Source: Eledone cirrhosa (taxonomy: Eukaryota). From it: 64,000 bases of DNA. Location: contig OZ024747.1 in assembly GCA_964016885.1 (NCBI GenBank), positions 74,958,001 through 75,022,000 on the forward strand, in the 5' to 3' direction. The position numbers were made by a program, and so were the translations under genes. Shown piece by piece: positions 2,593 to 49,654 of the stretch; position 1 is the first letter of the stretch, and every line of letters starts with the position of its first letter. The notes beneath the pieces are model-generated. The model did not search any database, was not told the origin of the DNA, and saw only the letters and a program-made list of their open reading frames with translations.

Positions 2593-3832
2593 ATCATCAT
2601 CATCATCATCGTTTACCGTCCATATTCCACGCTTGCATGGGTTTGGACGGGAGTTTTCCCACTTGAGGCAAGAGTGGTTGTCTTGCTCGCATAGGACTGT
2701 CTGGCGGGTTTTCTACGGCTGGATGCCCGTCCTAAAACCAACCACATTTACAGTGTGGAACTGGGAGGTTTTAACCATGTTACCTACACGGCCACATTAC
2801 AGCGTGGACTGTGTGTTTTTTTGTCGTGACACCTACACGACCTCATTTGTTTCGGGCGGATGTTGTGGTACCAACATAACTTTACATTGAAAGGGGCGGT
2901 GTGGATGGGGTGGGGGTGGTGGGACGGGGGTGTATTTTGTTAGAGATGCCTACTGACTGTAGTAGGTTTCACTTTGTACTTAGGTAAGGCGGGTCTTCTC
3001 TATTACTGTGTAGTGCCAAAGATCTCGGTCCAGTGACATTGTCTTGGAGAGGTGTAAGTGTGTGAGGTCGGAATTTATCAAGTCGTCCCAGGTTTTTCTG
3101 GGTCTGCCTACTCCGTGGCTACCGTCTATTTTTATTGCCCTGCACTTTTTTATACAGCTGTCGTCTTTCATCACGTGGCCGTACCAACGTAGTCTTCTCT
3201 CGAGTAAACAGCATCTGATCCCTCTTATTCCTAATTTCTCCCTTAGTTCGTTTATACTTTGCCGTTCACGTATATTACTATTACACATCCAGCGGAGCAT
3301 GCAAGCTTCGTTCCTCTCCAGTCTGCATATATCCTCTGCACACAATGCCCAGGTCTCACTGCCATGCAACATTGCTGTTTGTATGCAGGCATCATACAGC
3401 CTCCCTTTCATTTTTAGGGAGAACCCTTTAGCGTCTAATAGTGGTATAAGCTCTTTGAACTTTTTCCATCCAGTTCTGACTCTAGCTACTGTACTTTCAG
3501 AGCACCCTCCCCCACTGCTGATTTTGTCACCCAGGTAACGGAAGCTGTCCACTATTTCTATAGAACCATCTGTGCAATTGAATGAGCTAGTATTCTGTGG
3601 GCACTTGCTGCTACTTATTGCACCAGAGCACCAGCCACATATAAAATCTATGTTCTTAGTTAGCTTACCTGTGATCCCACTACATATTTTATGCACCCAT
3701 ACTTTTCATTTGGGACATAAAATGGAGTTTCTACCTACTCATTTCCTACACACTGAGCATGGCCATTTCCCGGATGGGACCGGCGACCTATTTTCCTTCC
3801 TACAAACTAGAACTTTAGTCTTAGACAGGTTA
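2593..3832 (-). mobile_element. 5'-truncated RTE LINE (family 1, subfamily b): RT C-terminus, PHD-like Cys cluster and 3' UTR with (TGA)n tail
   Basis: ORF 2980-3696 contains FRYLGD, MLHGSETW and RRLRWYGHV. Clearly homologous to the ORF at 20809-21792. (cat)n tail at 2593-2610. Confidence 0.9.
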
Positions 3833-3878: not shown

Positions 3879-4023
3879 GTTGGTATTAGGAAGGGCATCA
3901 AGCTGTAGAAAACCCGCCAGATAGTCCTATGCGAGCAAGATAATCACTCTTGCCTCAAGTGGGAAAACCCCCGTCCAAACCCATGCAAGTGTGGAACACG
4001 GACGTTAAACGTTAATGATGATG
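3879..4023 (+). mobile_element. RTE/SINE 3'-tail fragment, inverted copy of 2593-2745
   Basis: ggaagggcatcaagctgtagaaaacccgccag...ggacgttaaacgttaatgatgatg is the reverse complement of the 3' UTR at 2593-2745. Confidence 0.8.
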
Positions 4024-4961
4024 TATGTATATATATATGTTTATATATGTATGTATATATATATATATGTTTATATATGTATGTATATATATATATATGT
4101 TTATATATGTATGTATATATATATATATATGTTTATATATGTATGTATATATATATATATATGTTTATATATGTATGTATATATATATATGTTTATATAT
4201 GTATGTATATATATATGTTTATATATGTATGTATATATATATATGTTTATATATGTATGTATATATATATGTTTATATATGTATGTATATATGTTTATAT
4301 ATATGTATATATATATGTATATATATATATGTATGTATATATATATATGTTTATATATATATATGTTCATATATGTATGTATATATATATATGTTTATAT
4401 ATGTATGTATATATATATATGTTTATATATGTATGTATATATATATGTTTATATATGTATGTATATATATATGTTTATATATGTATGTATATATATATGT
4501 TTATGTATGTATATATATATGTTTATATATATATGTATGTATATATATATGTTTATATATATATGTATGTATATATATGTTTATATATATATGTATGTAT
4601 ATATATGTTTATATATATATGTATGTATATATATATGTTTATATATGTATGTATATATATATATGTTTATATATATATGTATGTATATATATATATATGT
4701 ATATATATATATGTATATATATGTATATATATATATGTATATATATATATGTATATATATGTATGTTTATATATGTATATATATGTATGTATATATATGT
4801 ATGTTTATATATGTATGTTTATATATGTATGTATATATATGTATGTTTATATATGTATGTTTATATATGTATGTTTATATATGTATGTTTATATATGTAT
4901 GTTTATATATGTATGTATATATATATATGTTTATATATGTATGTATATATATATATATGTT

Positions 4962-4997
<36 letters not shown>

Positions 4998-5283
4998 TAT
5001 GTTTATATATATATGTATGTATATATATATATGTATATATATATATGTTTATATATGTATGTATATATATATATGTTTATATATGTATGTATATATATAT
5101 GTTTATATATGTATGTATATATATATGTTTATATATGTATGTATATATATATGTTTATATATGTATGTATATATATATGTTTATATATATATGTATGTAT
5201 ATATATGTTTATATATATATGTATGTATATATATATGTTTATATATGTATGTATATATATATATGTTTATATATATATGTATG

Positions 5284-5316
<33 letters not shown>

Positions 5317-5523
5317 GTATATATATGTATATATATATATGTATATATATATATATGTATATATATGTATGTTTATATATGTATATATATGTATGTATAT
5401 ATATGTATGTTTATATATGTATGTTTATATATGTATGTTTATATATGTATGTTTATATATGTATGTTTATATATGTATGTATATATATATATGTTTATAT
5501 ATGTATGTATATATATATATGTT

Positions 5524-5559
<36 letters not shown>

Positions 5560-5799
5560 TATGTTTATATATGTATGTATATATATATATGTATATATAT
5601 ATATGTTTATATATGTATGTATATATATATATGTTTATATATGTATGTATATATATATATGTTTATATATGTATGTATATATATATGTTTATATATGTAT
5701 GTATATATATATATGTTTATATATGTTTATGTATGTATATGTATGTATGTATGTATATATATGTATGTATGTATATATATGTATGTATGTATATATATG

Positions 5800-5831
<32 letters not shown>

Positions 5832-6197
5832 TATGTATGTATATATATATGTATATATATATATGTATGTATATATATATGTATGTATATATATATATGT
5901 ATGTATATATATATATGTATGTATATATATATATGTATGTATATATATATATGTATGTATATATATATATGTATGTATATATATATATGTATGTATATAT
6001 ATATGTATGTATATATATATATATGTATATATATATATGTATGTATATGTATATATGTATATATATGTATGTATGTATATATATATATGTATGTATATAT
6101 ATATATGCATGTATATATGTATGTATGTATGTATATATATATATGTATGTGTATGTATGTATGTATGTATGTATGTATGTATATATATATATATATT
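4024..6197. repeat. Compound (TA)n/(TATG)n/(TGTTTA) microsatellite
   Basis: Directly visible. Source of the spurious Y/I/M/V/C ORFs. Confidence 0.97.
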
Positions 6198-6747
6198 TCG
6201 GGTCGTTGGCGACTAAACTGGCAACCCCACCAAGGTTTCTTGGTGAGGAGGGTGGCTTTGGACATCCTGCAGGACTAAAAACAAAACCTGTCAAAAGGCA
6301 AAGGGGCTCTTAAGAGTCAATAGCCATCCAAAATCACCGGGAGAGATGACCCCTTAGCCTTTGTCAAGGCAGAATTCTAGGAGAAGGAAAACTCTGATAT
6401 AACACCTGCAACCCTGATGGTATCCAATGATGTTGAATTGTTCTTCTTTTTGGTAAATATCATCTTGGTTAAGAGAGTGGGACTGGCTTTGTGCAGTGCC
6501 TTTGCTCACTATAAAAGCTTCACGGCACAGGCATTGCTTTATATCTGGAGATCTCTCTGTACTTGTCGTCACATGGTACCATGGGCCCAGCACTATGTGT
6601 CACTAATTGTCACAAGTGTAGTGTTTGTACCAGAGTTTTCAAGTCGCTGGCTGGACTAAAAAGTCACATTCGTTCAGCGCATTGGTAGGGGTTCTCCTAC
6701 ATGGATATAAAGTAGTGGCCGTACTCGAAAACGAGTTGGCAGCCACC
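6198..6747 (+). mobile_element. 608-bp TA-embedded non-coding element, 5'-truncated copy 1
   Basis: Near-identical to 9877-10426. Ends gagttggcagccacc followed by (AT)n. Confidence 0.85.
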
Positions 6748-7728
<981 letters not shown>

Positions 7729-7964
7729 TTTTCTCTTTCTCTTAATTTTGAGTATATTTTTTGACCGGCCACCTTCCTGGTGGCAAGGTTGTAAAAGAAA
7801 AGAAATTGTCATCCCTTGAATCGCAAGAATGTTTTGCAAATTTTGAAGGTGCCAGCTATCGCAGCCATTTGTAGACTATGAATTAGGGAGCTGCGCTTTT
7901 TGTCCGCAAATCCAAGTTCAGTCATACTTTGGTCCAAGCGGGTTGGTATATAACCCGTAGCACC

Positions 7965-8124
7965 AATAATTGTTTCTACTTTAGGCACAAGGCCAGCAAT
8001 TACCCAGTGTATTACTGGTACTTTATTTTATCGACCTCAGCGGGATTTGAACTCAGATCGTAAAGGGACGTAACTATGCTGGAAAGCATGGTGTCTTACC
8101 CTCTACCGATACTGCCAATCCACC
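7965..8124 (-). mobile_element. SINE family A copy with internal deletion
   Basis: Reverse complement ggtggattggcagtatcggtagag...gagttcaaatcccgc...tcgataaaataaagtaccag matches the full copy at 31806-31993. Confidence 0.8.
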
Positions 8125-9818
<1,694 letters not shown>

Positions 9819-10426
9819 GTCAGGTCACCACTTGGTGCTACTGGTAACATGTATCCCAGTACAACCTGTCTCATGGTCGGGTCGTTGGCGACTAAACTGG
9901 CATCCCCACTAAGGTTTCTTGGTGAGGAGGGTGACTTTGGACATCCTGCAGGACTAAAAACAAAACCTGTCAAAGGGCAAAGGAGCTCTTAAGAGTCAAT
10001 GGCCATCCAAAATCACCGGGAGAGATGACCCCTTAGCCTTTGTCAAGGCAGAATTCTAGGAGAAGGAAAACTCTGATATAACACCTGCAACCCTGATGGT
10101 ATCCAATGATGTTGACTTGTTCTTCTTTTTGGTAAATATCATCTTGGTTAAGAGAGTGGGACTGGCTTTGTGCAGTGCCTTTGCTCACTATAAAAGCTTC
10201 ACGGCACAGGCATTGCTTTGTATCTGGAGATCTCTCTGCACTTGTCATTACATGGTACCATGGGCGCAGCACTATGTGTCAATAATTGTCACAAGTGTAG
10301 TGTTTGTACCAGAGTTTTCAAGTTGCTGGCTGGACTAAAAAGTCACACTCGTTCAGCGTATCGGTAGGGGTTCTCCTACATGGTTATAAAGTAGTGGCCG
10401 TACTCGAAAACGAGTTGGCAGCCACC
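9819..10426 (+). mobile_element. 608-bp TA-embedded non-coding element, full-length copy 2
   Basis: gtcaggtcaccacttgg...ggcagccacc, with TA microsatellite on both sides. Same length and ends as the inverted copy at 42073-42680. Confidence 0.88.
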
Positions 10427-10520: not shown

Positions 10521-11420
10521 ACTGTTACCCAATGGGCAGAAAAGAACAACATGTTACTGAACGAAGACAAATTCGAACTGATCCACTTTGGAAAAGAGGA
10601 TGCTCTGAAACTCCCGTACTCCCTTCCCTCCGGGGAAACTCTCGTGGCATCTAACAAAATCAGAGACTTGGGAGTAACCGTGGACAGCAACATAAGCTGG
10701 ACCACGCATATAAGCAGCAAAGTTGACATGGCCCGCAGAATGTGTTCCTGGATCCTCAGAACCTTCCAGTCGAGAGATTCCCGCACCATTATCCTTCTCT
10801 TCTCTACTTTCGCCCGACCACACCCTGAATACTGTTGTCCACTGTGGTCTCCCCACACGAAACAAAGTATCATGAAACTTGAAGCTCCTCAAAGGGCAAT
10901 CACGAAAAAGATAGATGGCATGTCAGACCTTGACTACTGGGGTCGATTGGAAAACCTGAAACTTTACTCACTCCAACGTCGCCGTGAGCGTTATATTATC
11001 TGCATGATGTGGAAAATGTTCCATCATCACTGCCCAAATGATGTTGGCATCGCCTTCAAGATACACCCAAGGCTTGGGCCCCGTGCTATCCGTCCCATTC
11101 AAAAATCTAAATCGCAACTCATAACAACAATACGGCACAATTATTTCACCTCAATCGGCCCTGCTCTCTTCAACATCACACCAGGACACGTCAAAACAGA
11201 AACTGACCACACAAAATTCAAGAAGTCTTTGGACAAATTCCTCCAAGTAATCCCGGACAAACCACCCACACCCGGATATGTCTCCGCAAACAGTAATTCT
11301 CTTCTCGAATGGGCCATGGTGCCCAAATCCTGAATTGAAAGACTTCGCCAGGTGGTGCTATTAAGTTAGACATGGCCTGGGCCAATACTGGCCAAAACAT
11401 TTCAAAGTTATTCAAAGTTA
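10521..11420 (+). mobile_element. CR1/L2-group LINE 3' fragment (RT thumb and C-terminus, open frame to 11333)
   Basis: WAEKNNMLLNEDKF, DLGVTVDSNISWTTHI, RPHPEYCCPLWSP and LYSLQRRRER are characteristic CR1/L2 motifs. Short 3' UTR ends (ttcaaagtta)2. Sits in a TA tract. Confidence 0.88.
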
Positions 11421-11854: not shown

Positions 11855-12670
11855 ATATATATATATATATGTATGTATATATATATATATATATGTATGT
11901 ATATATATATATATGTATGTATGTTTATGTATATATATGTATATGTATGTTTATATATATATATGTATGTTTATATATATATATATATATGTATCTTTAT
12001 ATATGTATATATATATATATGGATGTATGTATGTATGGATGTATGTATGTGTATATATATATATATATGAATATATATATGTATATATGAATATATATAT
12101 GTATATATATATATATATGTATATATGTATATAAATATGAATATATATATGTATATATGTATATATGTATATAAATATGAATATATATATGTATATATGT
12201 ATATATGAATATATATATGTATATATGAATATATATATGTATATATGAATGTATATATGAATATATATATGTATATTTGTATATATGAATATATATATAT
12301 GTATATATGAATATTGTTATACTTTGGGAGGGTCATGTTGCCAATAAGATATATGAATATATATATATGTATATATGAATATATATATATGTATATATGA
12401 ATATATATATATATATGTATATATGAATATATATATATATGAATATATATATATATATGAATATATATATATATGTATATATATATGTATATATGAATAT
12501 ATATATATGTATATATGAATATATATATATGAATATATATATATGTATATATGAATATATATATATATATGTATATATGAATATATATACATATATATAT
12601 ATATGAATATATGTATATATGAATATATGTATATATGAATATATATATACATGTATATATGAATATGCAT
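11421..12670. repeat. (TA)n/(TATG)n/(TATGAA) microsatellite with a 39-bp unique island at 12311-12349
   Basis: Directly visible. Confidence 0.95.
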
Positions 12671-13053
12671 AAGGCACATGGCTTTGTGGTTAGAGCAATA
12701 GGCTTGTAATCGAAAGGTTGTGTGTTCAATTCTCGGACCTAGTGATGTGTTGCTTCCTTGAGCAAGACACTTTATTTCACGTTTCTCCAGTTTACTCAGC
12801 TGACAATGAGTACCAGCAATAGCTGGAGGTTTAACCTTGCGATGCACTGGCGTCCTATCCAGGGGGGAGTCTTGTATTCTGTCGCTTCACGCCATGAAAC
12901 CGGGATAAGCACTGGCCAAATGAGCCATCTGGCAGACTTTAGAGTAACGGCCTGCCCGCCCAGCCAGTGGGATGGCATCATCATATGGCTAAAACAGCAC
13001 TTGGTGTGACTAGCGGCGCCGAACGGCGCCCGGCAGACTGGTCGGTCAACGTG
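12671..13053 (+). mobile_element. tRNA-headed SINE family B, variant 1 (CORE-like plus V-like domain, GC hairpin tail)
   Basis: Head tggctttgtggttagagc...gttcaattc, then ccttgagcaagacactttatttc...ccagtttactcagctg (CORE-like), then gcgatgcactggcgtcctatccagggg (V-domain-like). Domain names assigned from recall. Confidence 0.75.
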
Positions 13054-13087: not shown

Positions 13088-13584
13088 GGTGACTTTGGAC
13101 ATCCTGCACGACTAAAAACAAAACCTGTCAAAGGGAAAAGGAGCTCTTAAGAGTCAATGGCCATCCAAAATCAACGGGAGAGATGACCCCTTACCCTTTG
13201 TCAAGGCAGAATTCTAGGAGAAGGAAAACTCTGATATAACACCTGCAACTCTGATGGTATCCAATGATGTTGACTTGTTCTTCTTTTTGGTAAATATCAT
13301 CTTGGTTAAGAGAGTGGGACTGGCTTTGTGCAGTGCCTTTGCTCACTATAAAAGCTTCACGGCACAGGCATTGCTTTATATCTGGAGATCTCTCTGCACT
13401 TGTCGTCACATGGTACCATGGCCCCACCAATATGTGTCAATAATTGTCACAAGTGTAGTGTTTGTACCAGAGTTTTCAAGTCGCTGGCTGGACTAAAAAG
13501 TCACACTTGTTCAGCGCATCGGTAGGGGTTCTCCTACATGGATATAAAGTAGTGGCCGTACTCGAAAACGAGCTGGCAGCCACC
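13088..13584 (+). mobile_element. 608-bp TA-embedded element, 5'-truncated copy 3
   Basis: Matches 9930-10426. Same 3' end ggcagccacc followed by atatat. Confidence 0.85.
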
Positions 13585-20506: not shown

Positions 20507-23500
20507 ATCATCATCATCATCATCACCGTTTTACGTCCGTTCTTCCACGCTAGCATGGGTTAGATGGGTTGTCCTGTTGTGGGCAGTGTCTGGTCGGCTG
20601 ACCATGCCTTGCTCATACAGGAACTGATTTGGCTTGATTTCTACAGCTGGATGCCCTTCCTAACACCAACCTCATTTACAGTGAGTGCTGGGTGCTTTTT
20701 CGTGGCGCCTACACGTCCACTTTACAGTGTGGGCTGGGTGCTTTTTTGCCGTGGCACCTCCACGACCACCTTGCGGTGGGGTGTGTGGGGGCATATTGTC
20801 TATATGCTTCAGCTTGTACCCATGGGAGGTCGGGTACTCTGTATTACTGCGTGACGCCAGAAGTCACGGTCGTGTGTCATTGCCTTTGAGAAGTGTAATT
20901 GGGTAAGGTCGGCTTTTATCACCTCATCCCAGGTCATCTTGGGTCTCCCCACTCCGCGGTTTCCATCAACTTCTAGTGCTCTGCACCTTTTTATGCAGCT
21001 GTCATCCTTCATACGCATCACGTGTCCATACCAGCGCAACCGCCTCTCCTGCACACAGCATTTGATTCCTCTTATACTCAGTCTCTCTCTCAATTCATTT
21101 ATGCTTTGTCGTTCGCGTATATTACTGTTACACATCCATCGGAGCATGCAGGCTTCGTTTCTCTCTAATCTACGTAAGTCTTCCACCTTCAGCGCCCAGG
21201 TCTCACTACCATGCAACATTGCTGTTTGGATACACGCATCATACAGTCTGCCTTTCATTCTGAGAGAGAAGACTTTTGCAGCTAGCAGTGCTAGTAGTTC
21301 CCTAAACTTCTTCCATCCCGTTCTTACCCTAGTTATTGTACTTTCTGAACACCCACCTCCACTGCTAATTCGGTCACCTAGGTAGCAGAAGCTGTCTACT
21401 GTTTCTACAGAGCCCTCCCAGAGATTGGTGGTACTTGTTTCCTGTGGCTGTTTGCTGCTTGCTGTCTCAGCACAGCTGCTGCATGTGAAGCCTACATTCT
21501 TAATTAAGCTTCCTGAGATCCCGCTACATCTCTTGTGTACCCATTGTTTGCATTTGGGGCAGAGAATGGAGTTCCTACCTACACCTTTCCTACATACTGA
21601 GCAAGGCCATTTCCCTGAGGGGATCTGGGTTCTGTTTTCTCGTCTACTTACAAGGACCTTAGTCTTTGTCATGTTGACTTTGAGACCCTTTCTTTCTAGT
21701 CCCTGCTTCCAAGTTTGGAATTTATTCTCTAGTTCTACCATAGATTCAGCTATGAGTGCGAGGTCATCAGCATACAGGAGTTCCATGGGCATCCGGTCTT
21801 AAACTCCTCCGTTATTGCCTGCAGGACTATGATGAACAGGAGGGGGCTAAGAACAGAGCCCTAGTGGACCCCAACCTGTACGCTAAATTCCTCGCTATAC
21901 TCATTGCTAATCCTAACTTTGCTGACTGCTCCCCTATACATGGCTTGTACCGCTTTCACAAGCCATTCATCTACTCCTAGTTTTCTAAGAGCCCACCAGA
22001 TTACAGCACGTGGAGCTCTGTCAAAGGCTTTCTCAAGGTCGACAAATGCCAAGTAGAGTGGCTTACTTTTAGCTAGGTACTTTTCCTATAATTGCCTCAC
22101 AAGGAAGAGGGCATCAGTGGTGCCTCTTCCTGGTACAAACCCAAATTGCATCTCGTCTATTTTCACCCGGTCCCTAATCAACTGTGCTATAACTCTTTCT
22201 GTTACTTTCATGACCTGGTCCATCAACTTTATACCTCTATAGTTTCCTCTATCTAGTGCATCGCCTTTACCTTTGTAGCAGTTGACAATGATGCTACTGC
22301 ACCAATCTTTTGGTATGGCACCTTCTAGTATTACCTGGTTAACAATACGTGTGGTTATAGTGTGACCTACAGACCCAGATGCCTTCAGCATCTCGGCAGC
22401 TATACCCGATGGATCGGCTGCCTTCCCCATCTTCATATCTTTGATTGCCTTACTTACTACGCTGCTGCTGACTTGTACTGCTGGTCCCTCTATAGGGTCT
22501 ACTTGGGGTAGGGTCTCTTCTTCCCATGTATTCTCCTCATTTAGTAATCTTTCATAATAGCTCTTCCACGCATCTTTCTTCTCAGCACTTGTGAGGGCAA
22601 GCTCACCTTTATCATTCCGGATACACTTCTCTCCAATGACATCACAACTATCTCTGACACACTGCCTCGCAATCTTGAATACCTCCTGTTTCTGGTCCTC
22701 ACGTTGTAAAACATGCTTGAATTTTCTATCCTCTGCTTCCCTCCTAGCTAAGTATACTTGTCGCCTAGCTTCCCTCTTGGTCTCTATGTAATGTACCCTG
22801 CTCCCCCCGTTCTTCCATTCTTTCCATGCCTGTCTCTTGGCCTTAACTGCTTCATCTACCTTATTGTTCCACCACCAAGTCACTCTCCTCCTGCTTGAGG
22901 TCTTACTCCAGCCACAGACCTCATCCGTCGCCTCTAGTAAATTATTTTTTAGGAACTCCCAGTTCTCTTCTACATTAAATGTCTCTATCTGTTCTTCTTT
23001 ACTGTCGTAGGCGTTGAGTAAAATATCTTTAAATCTGTTACTGGTTGAGGGGACTTTCAGCTTCCAGATCTTTCTTCTCCAGGTTGGCCTCTGTTTCCGG
23101 GTTCGTCGAGTTCTGACCGTGAGGTCGCTGACAACTAAGCTATGTTGGGATGTACATTCCTCACTAGGGAAGGCTTTTGTGTTTACGACCGTCCATCTGT
23201 CACGTCCTCTGATGAGGATAAAATCTAACTGACTAGAGTGCTCCCCTGATCTATAGGTGATCAGGTGGTTGTCGGGTTTTTTAAAGTTTGTGTTACATAT
23301 CGACATGTCATTGGCGTCGCAGAATTCTAGAAGTCTGAATCCTTCCTCATTCCTTGTGCCAACCCCATGGCCTCCATGTACTCTATTGAAGCCGTTGCAG
23401 TGTTTACCTACGTGTCCGTTAAAATCTCCTGCGATGATTAGGAAGTCATTGTCGTCTGTTAGAGCAGTAGTGTGCATTAGGGACTTGTAAAACCTATCCT

Positions 23501-24210
23501 TAAGTTCGTCTGGCAGCCCCGATTGGGGTGCGTAAGCTGATATTATTGTGGTAATTGTTTTGTTCAGGACTAGTCTGAGTTTAATGATTCTTGCATTTAC
23601 CCTGTACACTGAGATTACTTTATCTACCCACTTGTCAGCTAGTAGTATACCTACACCACCCAACCCATCGTCATTTCCCACCCAGAAAAATTTGTAGCAC
23701 CGACTTTTTCCTACTAGGACTCTGGCAGACTTGTATGTTGTGTGCAAGAGACTAGATGGAGAGGACTCCATCTAGTCTCTTGCACACAACATACATCAAT
23801 TTCCTTTCGCTCTAGCATTTCTACGATTTATCCTGCTCTTCCTTTCATTGAACCTACATTGATGGTATCAACTCGGAGTTTTGGGCATTTGTCGACACTC
23901 GTAGGGGAGGGTCTCTGGGTTGGCGCTTCACGTGGGTGCTTGGTAGCTTGCAGATTCATATTTCATCTATTGATTCAGAGTTGCTCAAATTTATTCTCAG
24001 CTCATCCATCCATAACGGTGGGAAAATTGAGGGCTAGAAGAACAGTGGTGGTGGGATAATGGCAGGGTGTGTTGGGCTGCGACAGAGTTAGTTAGGTGGT
24101 AGTAGTAGTAGTAGTAGTAGCAGCAGCAGCCGTAGAAATGGCATGCTGGGGTTTGACTGGTCGAATAGGCTATGGCGGTGTGAGGGGGTGGGAGGGAGGG
24201 AAATTGTGAG
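20507..24210 (-). mobile_element. Near-full-length RTE LINE (family 1a): APE endonuclease, RT and PHD-like finger, inactivated
   Basis: Endonuclease motifs (CVQETRW, GVGI, SAYAPQ, GDFNGHVG, LDFIL, SQH) and RT motifs (NYRGIKL, QFGF, FVDLEKAFD, GVHQG, YADD, YLG). (tga)n tail at 20507. 5' boundary is approximate. Confidence 0.93.
20809..23959 (-). pseudogene. RTE single ORF broken by stops and frameshifts
   Basis: Probable ATG at 23959. Lesions: inverted duplication at 23733-23794, premature stops near 22086 and 21861, and a 1-bp deletion near 21783 relative to the copy at 47903. Confidence 0.85.
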
Positions 24211-27239: not shown

Positions 27240-27543
27240 TTAACTCTTTCACGACCATATTTCTAATGAAATACACTGTATTTCAATTAATTAATGAAGA
27301 ATTTTGAGGGATTTACTAAAATTATTAATTATTTCATTACTAAGATAGTAACTTAATGTAAGGTTATTATATAAAAATATTTTGGAAGATTGTAATTTAA
27401 ATTAAAAATCTTCCAACATAATTTTATATAAGAACCTTACATTAAGTTACTACCTTAGTAATGAAATAATTAATAATTTTAGTAAATCCCTCAAAATTCT
27501 TCATTAATTAATTGAAATAGTGTATTTTATTAGAAAGGGTTGA
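27240..27543. mobile_element. Palindromic (head-to-head) M1 MITE derivative
   Basis: Roughly 135-bp near-perfect inverted arms centred on taatttaaatta (27393-27404). Confidence 0.8.
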
Positions 27544-27901
27544 CTCTTAACATCCTGTACCCCATGAAACCGCATTAGCAAGACGTTCTTGGTACACAAC
27601 TGCACAATGACTGCATCACATTAAAAAAGGAAATCTTTGTATTAATGCTGTAAATTTTTATAACAATTTGTCCGCTAGTAAAGATACTATAGGCATGTGA
27701 ATTAAACAGAAATTATCTAAAAACAGGTTTGTTTATGCAAATGTTTATAGTATTTTCTCTAGTGGAAAGATTGTTGTGAAAATTTGCAGTAAACTAAGTA
27801 AAAACTTTATTTTTTCATGTGATGCGGTCATAGTGTTGTTTTATGCTTTCAATAATGTCTTACTAATGTGGTTTCATGTGGTACAGGATGTTAAGAGTTA
27901 A
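27540..27901. mobile_element. TTAA-ended MITE family M3 with long TIRs
   Basis: ttgactcttaacatcctgtaccccatgaaaccgcattag versus ctaatgtggtttcatgtggtacaggatgttaagagttaa. Imperfect pairing continues for about 90 bp. Confidence 0.75.
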
Positions 27902-42072: not shown

Positions 42073-42680
42073 GGTGGCTGCCAACTCGTTTTCGAGTATG
42101 GCCACTACTTTATATCCATGTAGGAGAACTCCTACCAATGCGCTGAACGAATGTGACTTTTTAGTCCAGCCAGCGACTTGAAAACTCTGGTACAAACACT
42201 ACACTTGTGACAATTATTGACACATAGTGCTGGGCCCATGGTACCATGTGACGACAAGTGCAGAGAGATCTCCAGATATAAAGCAATGCCTGTGCTGTGA
42301 AGCTTTTATAGCGAGCAAAGGCACTGCACAAAGCCAGTCCCACTCTCTTAACCAAGATGATATTTACCAAAAAGAAGAACAAGTCAACATCATTGGATAC
42401 CATCAGAGTTGCAGGTGTTATATCAGAGTTTTCCTTCTCCTAGAATTCTGCCTTGACAAAGGCTAAGGGGTCATCTCTCCCGGTGATTTTGGATGGCCAT
42501 TGACTCTTAAGAGCTCCTTTGCCCTTTGACAGGTTTTGTTTTTAGTCCTGCAGGATGTCCAAAGTCACCCTCCTCACCAAGAAACCTTGGTGGGGTTGCC
42601 AGTTTAGTCGCCAACGACCCGACCATGGGACAGGTTGTACTGGAATACATGTTACCAGTAGCACCAAGTGGTGACCTGAC
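42073..42680 (-). mobile_element. 608-bp TA-embedded element, full-length copy 4 (inverted)
   Basis: Reverse complement of 9819-10426, with (TA)n on both sides. Confidence 0.88.
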
Positions 42681-42827: not shown

Positions 42828-43090
42828 AATGGTTTCATTTAGTTGGCATAAGACAGTGATGTTGCTGCAGCTAGTTTCTCTCCTCTACAACTATTATACA
42901 GCATCATATCCTACATATTATGATGTAGCTATATAGTTCATACATTATATATAGAATCAGTAATCCCCCCTATATACTCCATCATATTGCTAGCTATATA
43001 TTTCATATTATCATACTATATCTTGCATTGTACTACCTACTCTTACTCAAGTAGTTTCTATCTATCTATCTAGCTATCTATCTATCTATC

Positions 43091-44318
43091 GCTCGCCAAA
43101 ATGGAGCGCGCCCTCTTCCGATTCCTTTGGAAGAGGCGGGCTCCTTTGGTAAGAAGATCCATCTGCTGCCAACACCCTTCTAACGGAGGGCTGGGGATGC
43201 CGTGGTTGACGATGCGCAAACACGCGCTCAGGCTGCGGCATCTCTACGTATTCCTCACCGGACAACCGGTGTGGGCCCCGTTCGTGAGGCGAGCCTTCCC
43301 ACGACTCGTCTCGCTGACCGAGCTGCAGTCCTGGGTCAAGCAGAGACCGAGGAAAATGGGCGACTGGCACATCGAATGTGCTCAGGCGCTCACAGCCCTC
43401 TGGCAGGCGGACCCGGCGATCAGTGGAGACTCCACTTCGTCATTCTATAGAGGGTTGGTCCGCAGCAAGTGCGACGACGCGCTCGGTGAAACTCTAGGCG
43501 TGGAGGAAGATGAACTGGCCAGTCTGTTCGGTAGGACCTTCCGCCCGGGACCGATGGACAACTTCCAAAAGTCCCTGGCCTGGCAGTGCTACCGAGGAGC
43601 TCTACCAGTTCGAGACAAGCTCTACAGACATGGGCGCCCGGGCAGGGACCCTGCAAAAAAGATCTGTCCGAGGTGCGTGCGAGACGAAGAAACCGTCGCG
43701 CACGCATTCATACACTGCCCGGGCGTCACTGACCTGTGGGGCTATGTAGAACGACTATTGTCGCGGGTGGGACCAATCCAGTTGACCACCGAGTCCATTG
43801 TCATGATCAAACCGCCACCCTCCTTCAAAAACGAAGGAGAGGCGGTTTTCCTTTGTGTGATAGCTATGGCGAAAGAGGTTGTATGGTGGACAAGGTTGAA
43901 AGGGCTGAGGTCAGACACCTTTCTCTCCGGCCAACAACTGATTCTTTTTTTCAAATACCACTTTGGAAGAAGAATCAGGATGGAGAGAGAGGTGCTGTAC
44001 CCCAGCAAGTTTTATGAAAGGTGGGTGAAAGTGGCGAGAATGGCCCGAGTGAATGGGCCTTCTCCCTATATCAGCCTGTAGGTTGAGGAAAAGGAGGAGG
44101 AGAGGAAAGGAGTACAAGCTCTTCGTACTCCTGGAGATGAGGGTTGCACATTTTTTTCGGGGGTCTGTGTTACCCATATAAACTGTCTCCCTCTATTGGG
44201 GAAAATCGACTAACTTTTAAATTCCATCTGTGATAACATTTTACACGTTTTTATTGTATGTAAACTTCCCCCTTTGTATTTGTCCCCTTCTTTTGTGCCC
44301 CTGTGGCTAATAAAGAAA
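43091..44318 (+). mobile_element. Tx1/L1-clade LINE, 5'-truncated; ORF2 C-terminus with zf-RVT CCHC knuckle, open to 44081
   Basis: FRFLW, GGLGMP, W...ALPV and CPRC...ETVAHAFIHC motifs. GC-rich and uninterrupted. 3' end aataaagaaa, (TATC)n on both flanks. Confidence 0.9.
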
Positions 44319-47902: not shown

Positions 47903-49355
47903 TCATCATCATCATCATCATCACCGTTTTACGTCCGTTCTTCCACGCTAGCATGGGTTAGACGGGTTGTCCTGTTGTGGGCAGTGTCTGGTCGGCTGAC
48001 CATGCCTTGCTCATACAGGAACTGATCTGGCTTGATTTCTACAGCTGGATGCCCTTTCTAACACCAACCTCATTTACAGTGAGTGCTGGGTGCTTTTTCG
48101 TGGCGCCTACACGTCCACTTTACAGTGTGGGCTGGGTGCTTTTTTGCCGTGGCACCTCCACGACCACCTTGCGGTGGGGGGGGGGGGGGCATATTGTTTA
48201 TATGCTTCAGCATGTACCCATGGGAGGTCGGGTACCCTGTATTACTGCGTGACGCCAGAAGTCACGGTCGTGTGTCATTGACTTTGAGAGGTGTAGTTGG
48301 GTAAGGTCGGCTTTTATCACCTCATCCCAAGTCATCTTGGGTCTCCCCACTCCGCGGTTTCCATCAACTTCTAGTGCTCTGCACCTTTTTATGCAGCTGT
48401 CATCCTTCATACGCATCACATGTCCATACCAGCGTAACCGCCTCTCCTGCACGCAGCATTTGATTCCTCTTATGCTCAGTCTCTCTCTCAATTCATTTAT
48501 GCTTTGTCGTTCACGTATATTACTGTTACACATCCATCGGAGCATGCAGGCTTCGTTTCTCTCTAATCTACGTAAGTCTTCCACCTTCAGCGCCCAGGTC
48601 TCACTACCATGCAACATTGCTGTTCGGATACACGCATCATACAGTCTGCCTTTCATTCTGAGGGAGAAGCCTTTTGCAGCTAGCAGTGGTAGTAGTTCCC
48701 TAAACTTCTTCCATCCCGTTCTTACCCTAGTTATTGTACTTTCTGAGCACCCACCTCCGTTGCTAATTCGGTCACCTAGGTAGCAGAAGCTGTCTACTGT
48801 TTCTACAGGGCCCTCCCAGAGATTGGTGGTACTTGTTTCCTGTGGCTGTTTGCTTGCTGTTTCAGCACAGCTGCTGCATGTGAATCCTACATTCTTAATT
48901 AAGCTTCCTGAGATCCCGCTACATCTCTTGTGTACCCATTGTTTGCATTTGGGGCAAAGAATGGAGTTCCTACCTACACCTTTCCTACATACTGAGCAAG
49001 GCCATTTCCCTGAGGGGATCTGGGTTCTGTTTTCTCGTCTACTTATAAGGACCTTAGTCTTTGTCATGTTGACTTTGAGGCCCTTTCTCTCTAGTCCCTG
49101 CTTCCAGGTTTGGAATTTATTCTCTAGTTCTACCATAGATTCAGCTATGAGTGCGAGGTCATCAGCATACAGGAGTTCCCATGGGCATCCGGTCTTAAAC
49201 TCCTCCGTTATTGCCTGCGGGACTATGATGAACAGGAGAGGGCTAAGAACAGAGCCCTGGTGGACCCCAACCTGTACGCTAAATTCCTCGCTATACTCAT
49301 TGCCAATCCTAACTTTGCTGACTGCTCCCCTATACATGGCTTGTACCGCTTTCAC
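47903..49355 (-). mobile_element. 5'-truncated RTE family-1a copy with open RT C-terminal frame
   Basis: Near-identical to 20507-21960. GVHQGSVLSPLLF...YADD...PHD-like...RLRWYGHV is open from 49355 to 48207. The first ~57 aa of the listed ORF come from flank. Confidence 0.92.
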
Positions 49356-49654
49356 TGAAAATATCCAGTGAATTTCCAACCGATAAGGTATGATTTTCAT
49401 GGGCATGTTTCTATTTATAAAACAAACTTTGTATTTTATCTGATGAAAGCGTACCAATGTTGTCTTGGTACCCTTGAAATATATATAATAAAATAAATAT
49501 GGTTTTATAAATATAGTTTCCATTTATTTAATATATATATATATACCTTAAAGTACGTGTATTTTTCTGAATATTATTTGCTTTATATATTTGTACAAAA
49601 TATTGTGTTTCTCAAAATATATGACACTTTCTTTCTCTACATATATCTAACTTG

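Follow-up and report, generated by a model that had tools for sequence, protein, structure and literature searches.

A short element joining the two ends of an RTE-type LINE and its preference for ATGT/TA microsatellites in Eledone cirrhosa

RTE-type LINEs give rise to bipartite non-autonomous elements, in which the RTE 5′ and 3′ ends remain after internal deletion (RTE-N2_Lch, Bov-A, RTESINE1/2, WALLSI3, and MAR4_MD; Kojima 2018, PMC5786205). As described in the accessible portions of that paper, these elements have no RNA-derived head and carry a conserved RTE 5′ UTR domain. The element analyzed here resembles them in each of these respects. Unlike the elements described there, it has a greater length (608 nt), retains the last zinc-finger codons, is about 270 times as numerous as its parent by exact 24-mers, and resides in pre-existing microsatellites in one orientation.

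RTE elements have been listed as random integrators (PMC13708176, in the text available). Nishiyama and Ohshima (2018, PMC6007223) describe a model for the insertion of RTEs that involves a weak T-stretch signature with 1 to 2 nt of microhomology, and the accessible text of that paper names only Tx1 and R1 as site-specific APE clades. With this model the element shares a 3′ repeat in the RNA that matches the first base of the duplication, candidate duplications of about 10 to 13 nt, and a 3′ hairpin with compensatory changes; unlike in the model as outlined there, most element copies lie within the repeat itself. We infer that insertion of the element is this model taken to strong preference.

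The ACAY-microsatellite-specific LINE Waldo (PMC3812793) uses the same repeat (ACAT is ATGT on the reverse strand) and an APE-type enzyme, whereas its clade and architecture differ from those of the element, whose preference is about 80% and extends to pure TA. The microsatellite-targeting LINEs in the accessible part of that review are Waldo, Mino, Kibi, Koshi, and Dong, with no RTE among them (PMC3812793). RTE-2_OV from Octopus vulgaris (PMC9115989) has a single ORF with endonuclease, RT, and C2H2 finger, followed directly by a microsatellite, as is the case in RTE-C, a sister family of the parent LINE described below. RTE-2_OV encodes 1,109 aa with one finger; it was compared by description only, and the available description gives neither a short derivative nor a target preference. 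In the open-licence literature searched, we found no description of ATGT-targeting RTEs or of this family. Taken alone, the element is one more bipartite RTE derivative; it seems distinct in an oriented ATGT/TA preference that appears to be conserved in a wider lineage.

The element and its parent LINE

The window, a 64,000-nt stretch of E. cirrhosa DNA (GCA_964016885.1, contig OZ024747.1, positions 74,958,001 to 75,022,000), contains four copies of the element (Table 1), at exactly the coordinates given by an earlier, sequence-only reading. As that reading had it, two copies are full length, two are 5′-truncated, and all four stop at the common 3′ end, nt 608. The copies are 96.6 to 97.0% identical to copy 2 without gaps, and TA/ATGT flanks are present at 4/4.

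Table 1. Coordinates of the element copies, their parts, and a further LINE within the window
Feature	Position	Strand	Basis
Copy 1, 5′-truncated (starts at nt 59)	6198..6747	+	Alignment to copy 2
Copy 2, full-length 608-nt internally deleted RTE derivative	9819..10426	+	
Copy 3, 5′-truncated (starts at nt 112)	13088..13584	+	Alignment to copy 2
Copy 4, full length	42073..42680	-	Alignment to copy 2
TA/ATGT microsatellite tract around copies 1 and 2; ATGT on the elements' sense strand	4021..9818	.	
5′ part: first 431 nt of the parent 5′ UTR	9819..10249	+	97.4% to parent copy L193
Deletion junction; 3-nt overlap of the two parts, lying in an 11-nt sequence that both sides share imperfectly	10247..10249	+	
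3′ part: last 180 nt of the parent (ORF end and short 3′ UTR)	10247..10426	+	Parent alignments
Conserved RTE 5′ UTR domain	10036..10077	+	Matches OegopSINE 173-220 / RTE-3_BF, supplement of PMC5786205 (available part)
Remnant of the parent's third C2H2 zinc finger	10290..10361	+	PF00096 on copy 4; in frame in parent copies
Hairpin at the 3′ terminus, with its inner 5-bp stem at 10402-10415, plus the conserved final 10 nt	10394..10426	+	Folding z, covariation
Structured 5′ head shared with sister families; multi-way junction or non-canonical HDV-like fold	9819..9900	+	
RTE-like LINE with PHD finger inside the RT region	20507-23771, 47905-49523, 2968-3831	-	PF00628, E 9.7e-7; ~25-28% to RTE-C

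With a probability of roughly 0.88, the 608-nt element unites the two ends of a 4.06-kb RTE-type LINE that has a single ORF and is present in the same genome, and target-primed reverse transcription likely copies it in trans into TA/ATGT microsatellites. The sequence-only reading had proposed a bipartite non-autonomous RTE-type LINE derivative and a search for long elements sharing both of its ends; both element ends were identified in the 4.06-kb parent. Element nt 1 to 431 are matched at 93.5 to 97.4% identity in 7/20 fetched parent places, and nt 429 to 608 at 92 to 97% in six parent places and at 84% in a seventh, which has a deletion there. The same 7/20 places carry an ORF encoding endonuclease, RT, and zinc fingers between the element-like ends. 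Five of the seven full-length parent copies measure 4,015 to 4,073 nt, 2 further full-length copies were found among 34 more places, and the element's 3′ end closes 30/30 parent loci. The parent was reached through a 5′-truncated copy at locus L138; RTE-C, a sister family, had been met earlier via a LINE fragment adjoining a copy of the element.

About 3,465 nt of parent sequence, endonuclease and RT included, are missing from the element, the left break lying about 51 nt before the parent's ATG. The founder element would have arisen by one deletion of this length at a short look-alike sequence. The deletion joint was recovered in contigs of 4/4 public runs placed on the parent (three at a depth of only 3 to 15; contig depth does not give copy number). 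Since both ends are shared with the parent and the middle is skipped, the element is an internal-deletion derivative, and its finger is a passenger from the ORF end. The element has several attributes of a bipartite non-autonomous RTE LINE: the RTE 5′ UTR domain, the retained 5′ and 3′ ends, and loss of endonuclease and RT by internal deletion. Retrotransposition as a unit is indicated by the fixed 3′ end, 5′ truncation, and presence at many loci. The resemblance to an RTE-type 5′ UTR motif noted in the sequence-only reading is real: the motif matches OegopSINE and RTE-3_BF in the available supplement of PMC5786205.

The assertion that the element holds no credible ORF proved wrong: nt 429 to 546 are the end of the parent ORF and contain a C2H2 finger near the element's 3′ end (PF00096, above the Pfam cut-off with E 1.3e-5 in translated copy 4). 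A protein search with the 55-aa finger remnant gave no candidate among longer proteins.

Although the element is SINE-like in size and copy number, the parent alignment refutes its reading as a solo LTR, a MITE, or a SINE derived from a tRNA; the probability of this reading is negligible, the element's 5′ end being the parent LINE's own 5′ end. Consistent with the earlier report, a tRNA gene search of the element was empty, an A/B box pattern was unmatched, and the element sequence has neither inverted nor TG..CA termini; truncation, moreover, is 5′-sided. LINE 3′ ends elsewhere in the window all lack the element's tail, and the partner was indeed located outside the window.

The internal-deletion derivative is abundant. 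In the genome (about 3.0 Gb), an exact 24-mer of the shared 3′ end occurs 26,192 times, with ATRTRTRT following in 21,601 cases, and an exact 5′ 25-mer occurs 10,601 times. A parent-specific exact 24-mer occurs 98 times, parent copies amount to a few hundred, and the exact 24-mers place the element-to-parent ratio at about 270 to 1. Three copies per 200 kb of arbitrary sequence, together with 46,046 finger-peptide candidates, suggest an estimate of some 45,000 element copies. The best 40 DNA matches genome-wide are near-full copies of 97 to 100% identity.

Truncation points were tabulated in a positional sample of 30 copies, those whose exact 3′ matches come first on contig 1 and which were thus chosen by the 3′ end. 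The 3′ end is present in 30/30, 14 copies are full length, and 16 are truncated at 15 different points. As a check on the bias of 3′-end sampling, 16/20 stretches picked by the 5′ head led to a copy reaching nt 606 to 608. The 3′ end is fixed and truncation is on the 5′ side, not at both ends. About 40% of copies have one common sharp 5′ end. The true 5′ end of many copies may lie about 4 nt upstream of the boundary given in the sequence-only reading.

Several individual copies carry unusual ends. The 4 nt before nt 1 are a TTGT-like extension in young subfamilies and TAT or TTAT in old ones, and a few full-length copies (L106, L115, L144) have an extra G at the 5′ end, which might be a copied cap. 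The first 20 nt are tandemly duplicated in one copy (L023:1480-1500) and the first 46 nt triplicated in another (L052:1031-1122), resembling successive template jumps as reverse transcription finishes. At L041:356-797, L042:1008-1277, and L142 the 5′ part of the copy is inverted, as happens in twin priming. An extra ACC between the 3′ end and the repeat (L060, L143, L162, L179, L180, L187; ATC in RTE-C) looks like slippage as reverse transcription starts.

The sister family RTE-C has a single ORF of 1,180 aa with endonuclease (PF03372), RT (PF00078), and three fingers, and the parent is collinear with the RTE-C protein at about 50 to 70% (tblastn). Both have the features of the RTE clade, namely one ORF that encodes an APE endonuclease and an RT, no ORF1, and the conserved 5′ UTR domain. 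The element is 68 to 69% identical to RTE-C at nt 192 to 398, 73 to 75% at the finger, and 90% over the last 30 nt; RTE-C was ruled out as the direct parent, its inner parts being only 68 to 75% alike. The same repeats also house at least three further short families, sisters of the element, that have its head and 3′ hairpin (L005:2136-2684; L041:2507-3110; L056:1789-1870; L277:1500-2080). The L041 type is 91 to 95% alike to the RTE-C ends and looks like RTE-C's own internal-deletion derivative. Microsatellite blocks inside both RTE-C UTRs (L093, L094) have a conserved order of GT, TA, TTA, and T runs.

Other features of the window include the 3′ fragment of a different LINE (10522-11420, +), which follows copy 2 at a distance of 95 nt within one TA tract and has a 269-aa frame with no Pfam match; a 335-aa open frame (43074-44081, +) that by eye resembles the C-terminal part of an L1/Tx1-type ORF2; and two adjoining imperfect palindromes of about 280 and 360 nt, found by self-comparison (27260-27901).

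Preference for TA and ATGT repeats

The element had been described as occurring only inside TA microsatellites. A strong preference is borne out, with TA-type 5′ flanks in 24/30 copies of the positional sample and TA-type 3′ flanks in 26/30, but it is not exclusive, and clear exceptions exist. TA-type 5′ flanks occur at 418/4,000 random places (about 10%) and in 1/30 copies of a control SINE; the flanks of the sampled copies are not random (24/30 versus 418/4,000).

Orientation was read from a larger set of 157 distinct copies, partly chosen by similarity, from which parent loci were excluded and one parent fragment was dropped. At informative 5′ flanks, the sense strand has ATGT rather than ACAT in 101 versus 10 cases, compared with a background of 256 versus 254. 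After 150/157 copies the repeat then reads ATGT or ATAT, with exceptions. The compositions of 5′ and 3′ flanks are correlated (rho 0.59, n = 122), weakly and not significantly so in the 30-copy positional sample (rho 0.27, p 0.24). Duplication-like repeats of 10 to 21 nt, compared with an RTE length of 7 to 15 nt, were seen in 9/157 copies with informative flanks, the cleanest being 12 nt at L106; most are unmeasurable inside repeats. The orientation is common to the parent (16 versus 1) and RTE-C (14 versus 0). A TA-type 5′ flank is found at 19/34 parent and 14/23 RTE-C aligned starts, some of these starts being internal breaks. TA-type repeats make up 9% of the genome, and a second SINE-like family (window 12665-12900) has TA on the 5′ side in 6/10 copies; TA preference is therefore not unique in this genome.

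In the mechanism that we propose, the endonuclease would nick the ACAT/ATAT strand at a TpA step, and the 3′ AU(G/A)U end of the RNA would pair with the nicked strand, yielding the fixed orientation and a duplication of about 10 to 17 nt. Because TpA is present on both strands of the repeat, TpA nicking alone cannot yield the orientation asymmetry. Finger positions -1 and +3 in the relatives are Ser in 96/103 and Gly in 102/103 cases, respectively. Ser at -1 and Gly at +3 are unlike the usual base-reading finger residues, and finger-guided site choice is therefore ranked below nicking and pairing.

The microsatellites might instead be made by the element, the RT adding ATGT/TA tails and later copies landing in or beside them without preference for pre-existing repeats. 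RTEs are reported to generate 3′ microsatellites (PMC2887409, in the text available), tail synthesis does occur, as the ACC/ATC slippage at the 3′ end indicates, and copies cluster head to tail. A TA flank on the 3′ side only is also more frequent than on the 5′ side only (21 versus 9), whereas the 24/30 TA-type 5′ flanks have the same orientation despite many truncation points. Rare interruptions of the repeat are shared by the two flanks of a single copy (L048, L110, L125, L228), and ATGT stands on the 5′ side of four metagenome relatives. Production of the repeats by the element appears very unlikely. Insertion into pre-existing repeats is the reading that we prefer.

Structured RNA ends

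All helices named in the sequence-only reading are present, and the C-to-T change in copy 2 retains a G-U pair. Compared with shuffles, the fold of the whole element is only modestly better (z of -1.8), and that of its last 53 nt has a z of -3.5; a second test of the 3′ hairpin gave a z of -3.8. Within the terminal stem-loop of that reading, the inner stem covaries in 13 relatives (96.6% paired, 12 double changes, 0/500 shuffles), whereas the outer stem pairs in only 74% of cells. The predicted 3′ terminal hairpin and the last 10 nt are likely to be the recognition signal of the RT.

The 5′ head was compared in 22 heads from several sister families, from which both candidate folds were drawn. 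The helices of a multi-way junction are 92.8% paired (19/500 shuffles), with double changes mostly in one hairpin, and those of an HDV-like order, a fold described in PMC4908430 (in the text available), are 92.2% paired (8/500 shuffles). It appears unlikely that the first 82 nt form a self-cleaving ribozyme of HDV-like type that would define the 5′ end and free the copies from having to carry a promoter. The HDV helices can all be drawn in their order, P1 beginning at nt 1 and a C-U-A-A strand preceding P2, yet two 4-nt linkers, a 4-bp P3, and a P1 mismatch depart from the HDV consensus. The 92% of paired cells, with a covariation score equalled by 8/500 shuffles, has its counterpart in the competing multi-way junction, which scores alike (93%, 19/500). 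One sharp 5′ end in about 40% of copies would suit a ribozyme, and RTE 5′ ribozymes are known (available text of PMC5786205 and PMC8501958), but many copies reach 4 nt upstream of P1, the head is unmatched in distant relatives, and neither an Rfam ribozyme nor a custom descriptor (run with no positive control) fits. Across the element and 12 long loci, Rfam returned no ribozyme, its matches being weak or repeat-driven only. Hammerhead and twister patterns are absent from the sense strand of the element, and one loose pistol-like pattern match was set aside. What speaks for putative self-cleavage of the 5′ part is thus a fold that is drawable and non-canonical.

Candidate helper enzymes and relatives

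Among 184 places (150 scored and 34 fetched), we found no intact parent; nine near-full copies examined are all broken, and the longest finger-linked parent frame is 626 aa. The nearest-neighbour distance has a median of 2.3% among parent copies (n = 55) and is 0.5% for RTE-C (n = 30, picked by likeness to one copy and biased to young copies). Eight element copies, spread over five contigs, show no difference across the 608 nt. RTE-C has 30,767 candidates genome-wide, with three frames of 1,180 aa, two of which have all 11 motifs checked. Given eight identical short copies and no intact parent, a sister LINE whose frames are intact, either RTE-C or another, likely drove the latest wave in trans.

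Early copies would have been made by the parent protein, and the youngest likely by the abundant sister RTE-C, which has intact frames and is 90% identical over the last 30 nt. The retained 5′ UTR would give transcription or 5′ processing, and the retained 3′ hairpin would be gripped by the LINE protein. Against RTE-C as the helper, it has no identical pair, young short copies keep the parent's tail and not that of RTE-C, other sister families exist, and an intact parent may be absent from the assembly.

This last point leads to a different account, in which the parent itself made all short copies from an intact copy absent from or collapsed in the assembly, and no helper switch took place. 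The element's tail is the parent's own and is unaltered in young subfamilies, a full-length parent copy (L223) begins with the 4-nt 5′ extension seen in young short copies, and divergence is near 3% among old short copies and about the same among parent copies. We regard this account as somewhat unlikely, as an active parent should leave young 5′-truncated copies of its own and the 184 places hold no intact or near-identical parent copy. A sister LINE thus remains the preferred driver of the latest wave.

Public assemblies yielded 49 related proteins, most with two or three terminal fingers. A scan of marine metagenomes, whose contigs may be collapsed repeats, gave 21 loci, 16 at 46 to 57% identity to RTE-C and five distant ones at 27 to 34%. 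ATGT directly follows the 3′ end in 11/11 metagenome loci whose contig reaches it, ten of them with two or more ATGT units and two probably of one family. On the 5′ side, (ATGT)n is present at four metagenome loci, and four others with long upstream sequence are without it; some loci are thus flanked by ATGT at either end. The five distant loci have no ATGT run, and the 5′ head pattern has 0 matches in the metagenome contigs. The metagenome relatives keep the covarying 3′ hairpin. In a quick RT tree (unrooted, without a clade-labelled reference), the families of this genome and the metagenome loci form separate clades with support of 99 each.

Tentatively, and at slightly less than even odds, these relatives place the parent in a widespread, undescribed RTE branch whose proteins have three C2H2 fingers at the C terminus and which targets (ATGT)n in fixed orientation. 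To R1, the clade of Waldo, and Tx1 this branch would add a third APE lineage whose microsatellite targeting is conserved, converging on Waldo's target, and the 608-nt parasite would have outlived its parent by switching to a sister enzyme.

The 431 + 180 nt of the element mark out a naturally occurring minimal template of an RTE enzyme. The oriented ATGT preference and the covarying 3′ hairpin are common to parent, sister, and distant relatives, and a conserved repeat target offers a direct way to ask whether endonuclease, RNA-DNA pairing, or fingers choose the site. The same lineage provides a way to ask whether a non-autonomous LINE can change its helper.
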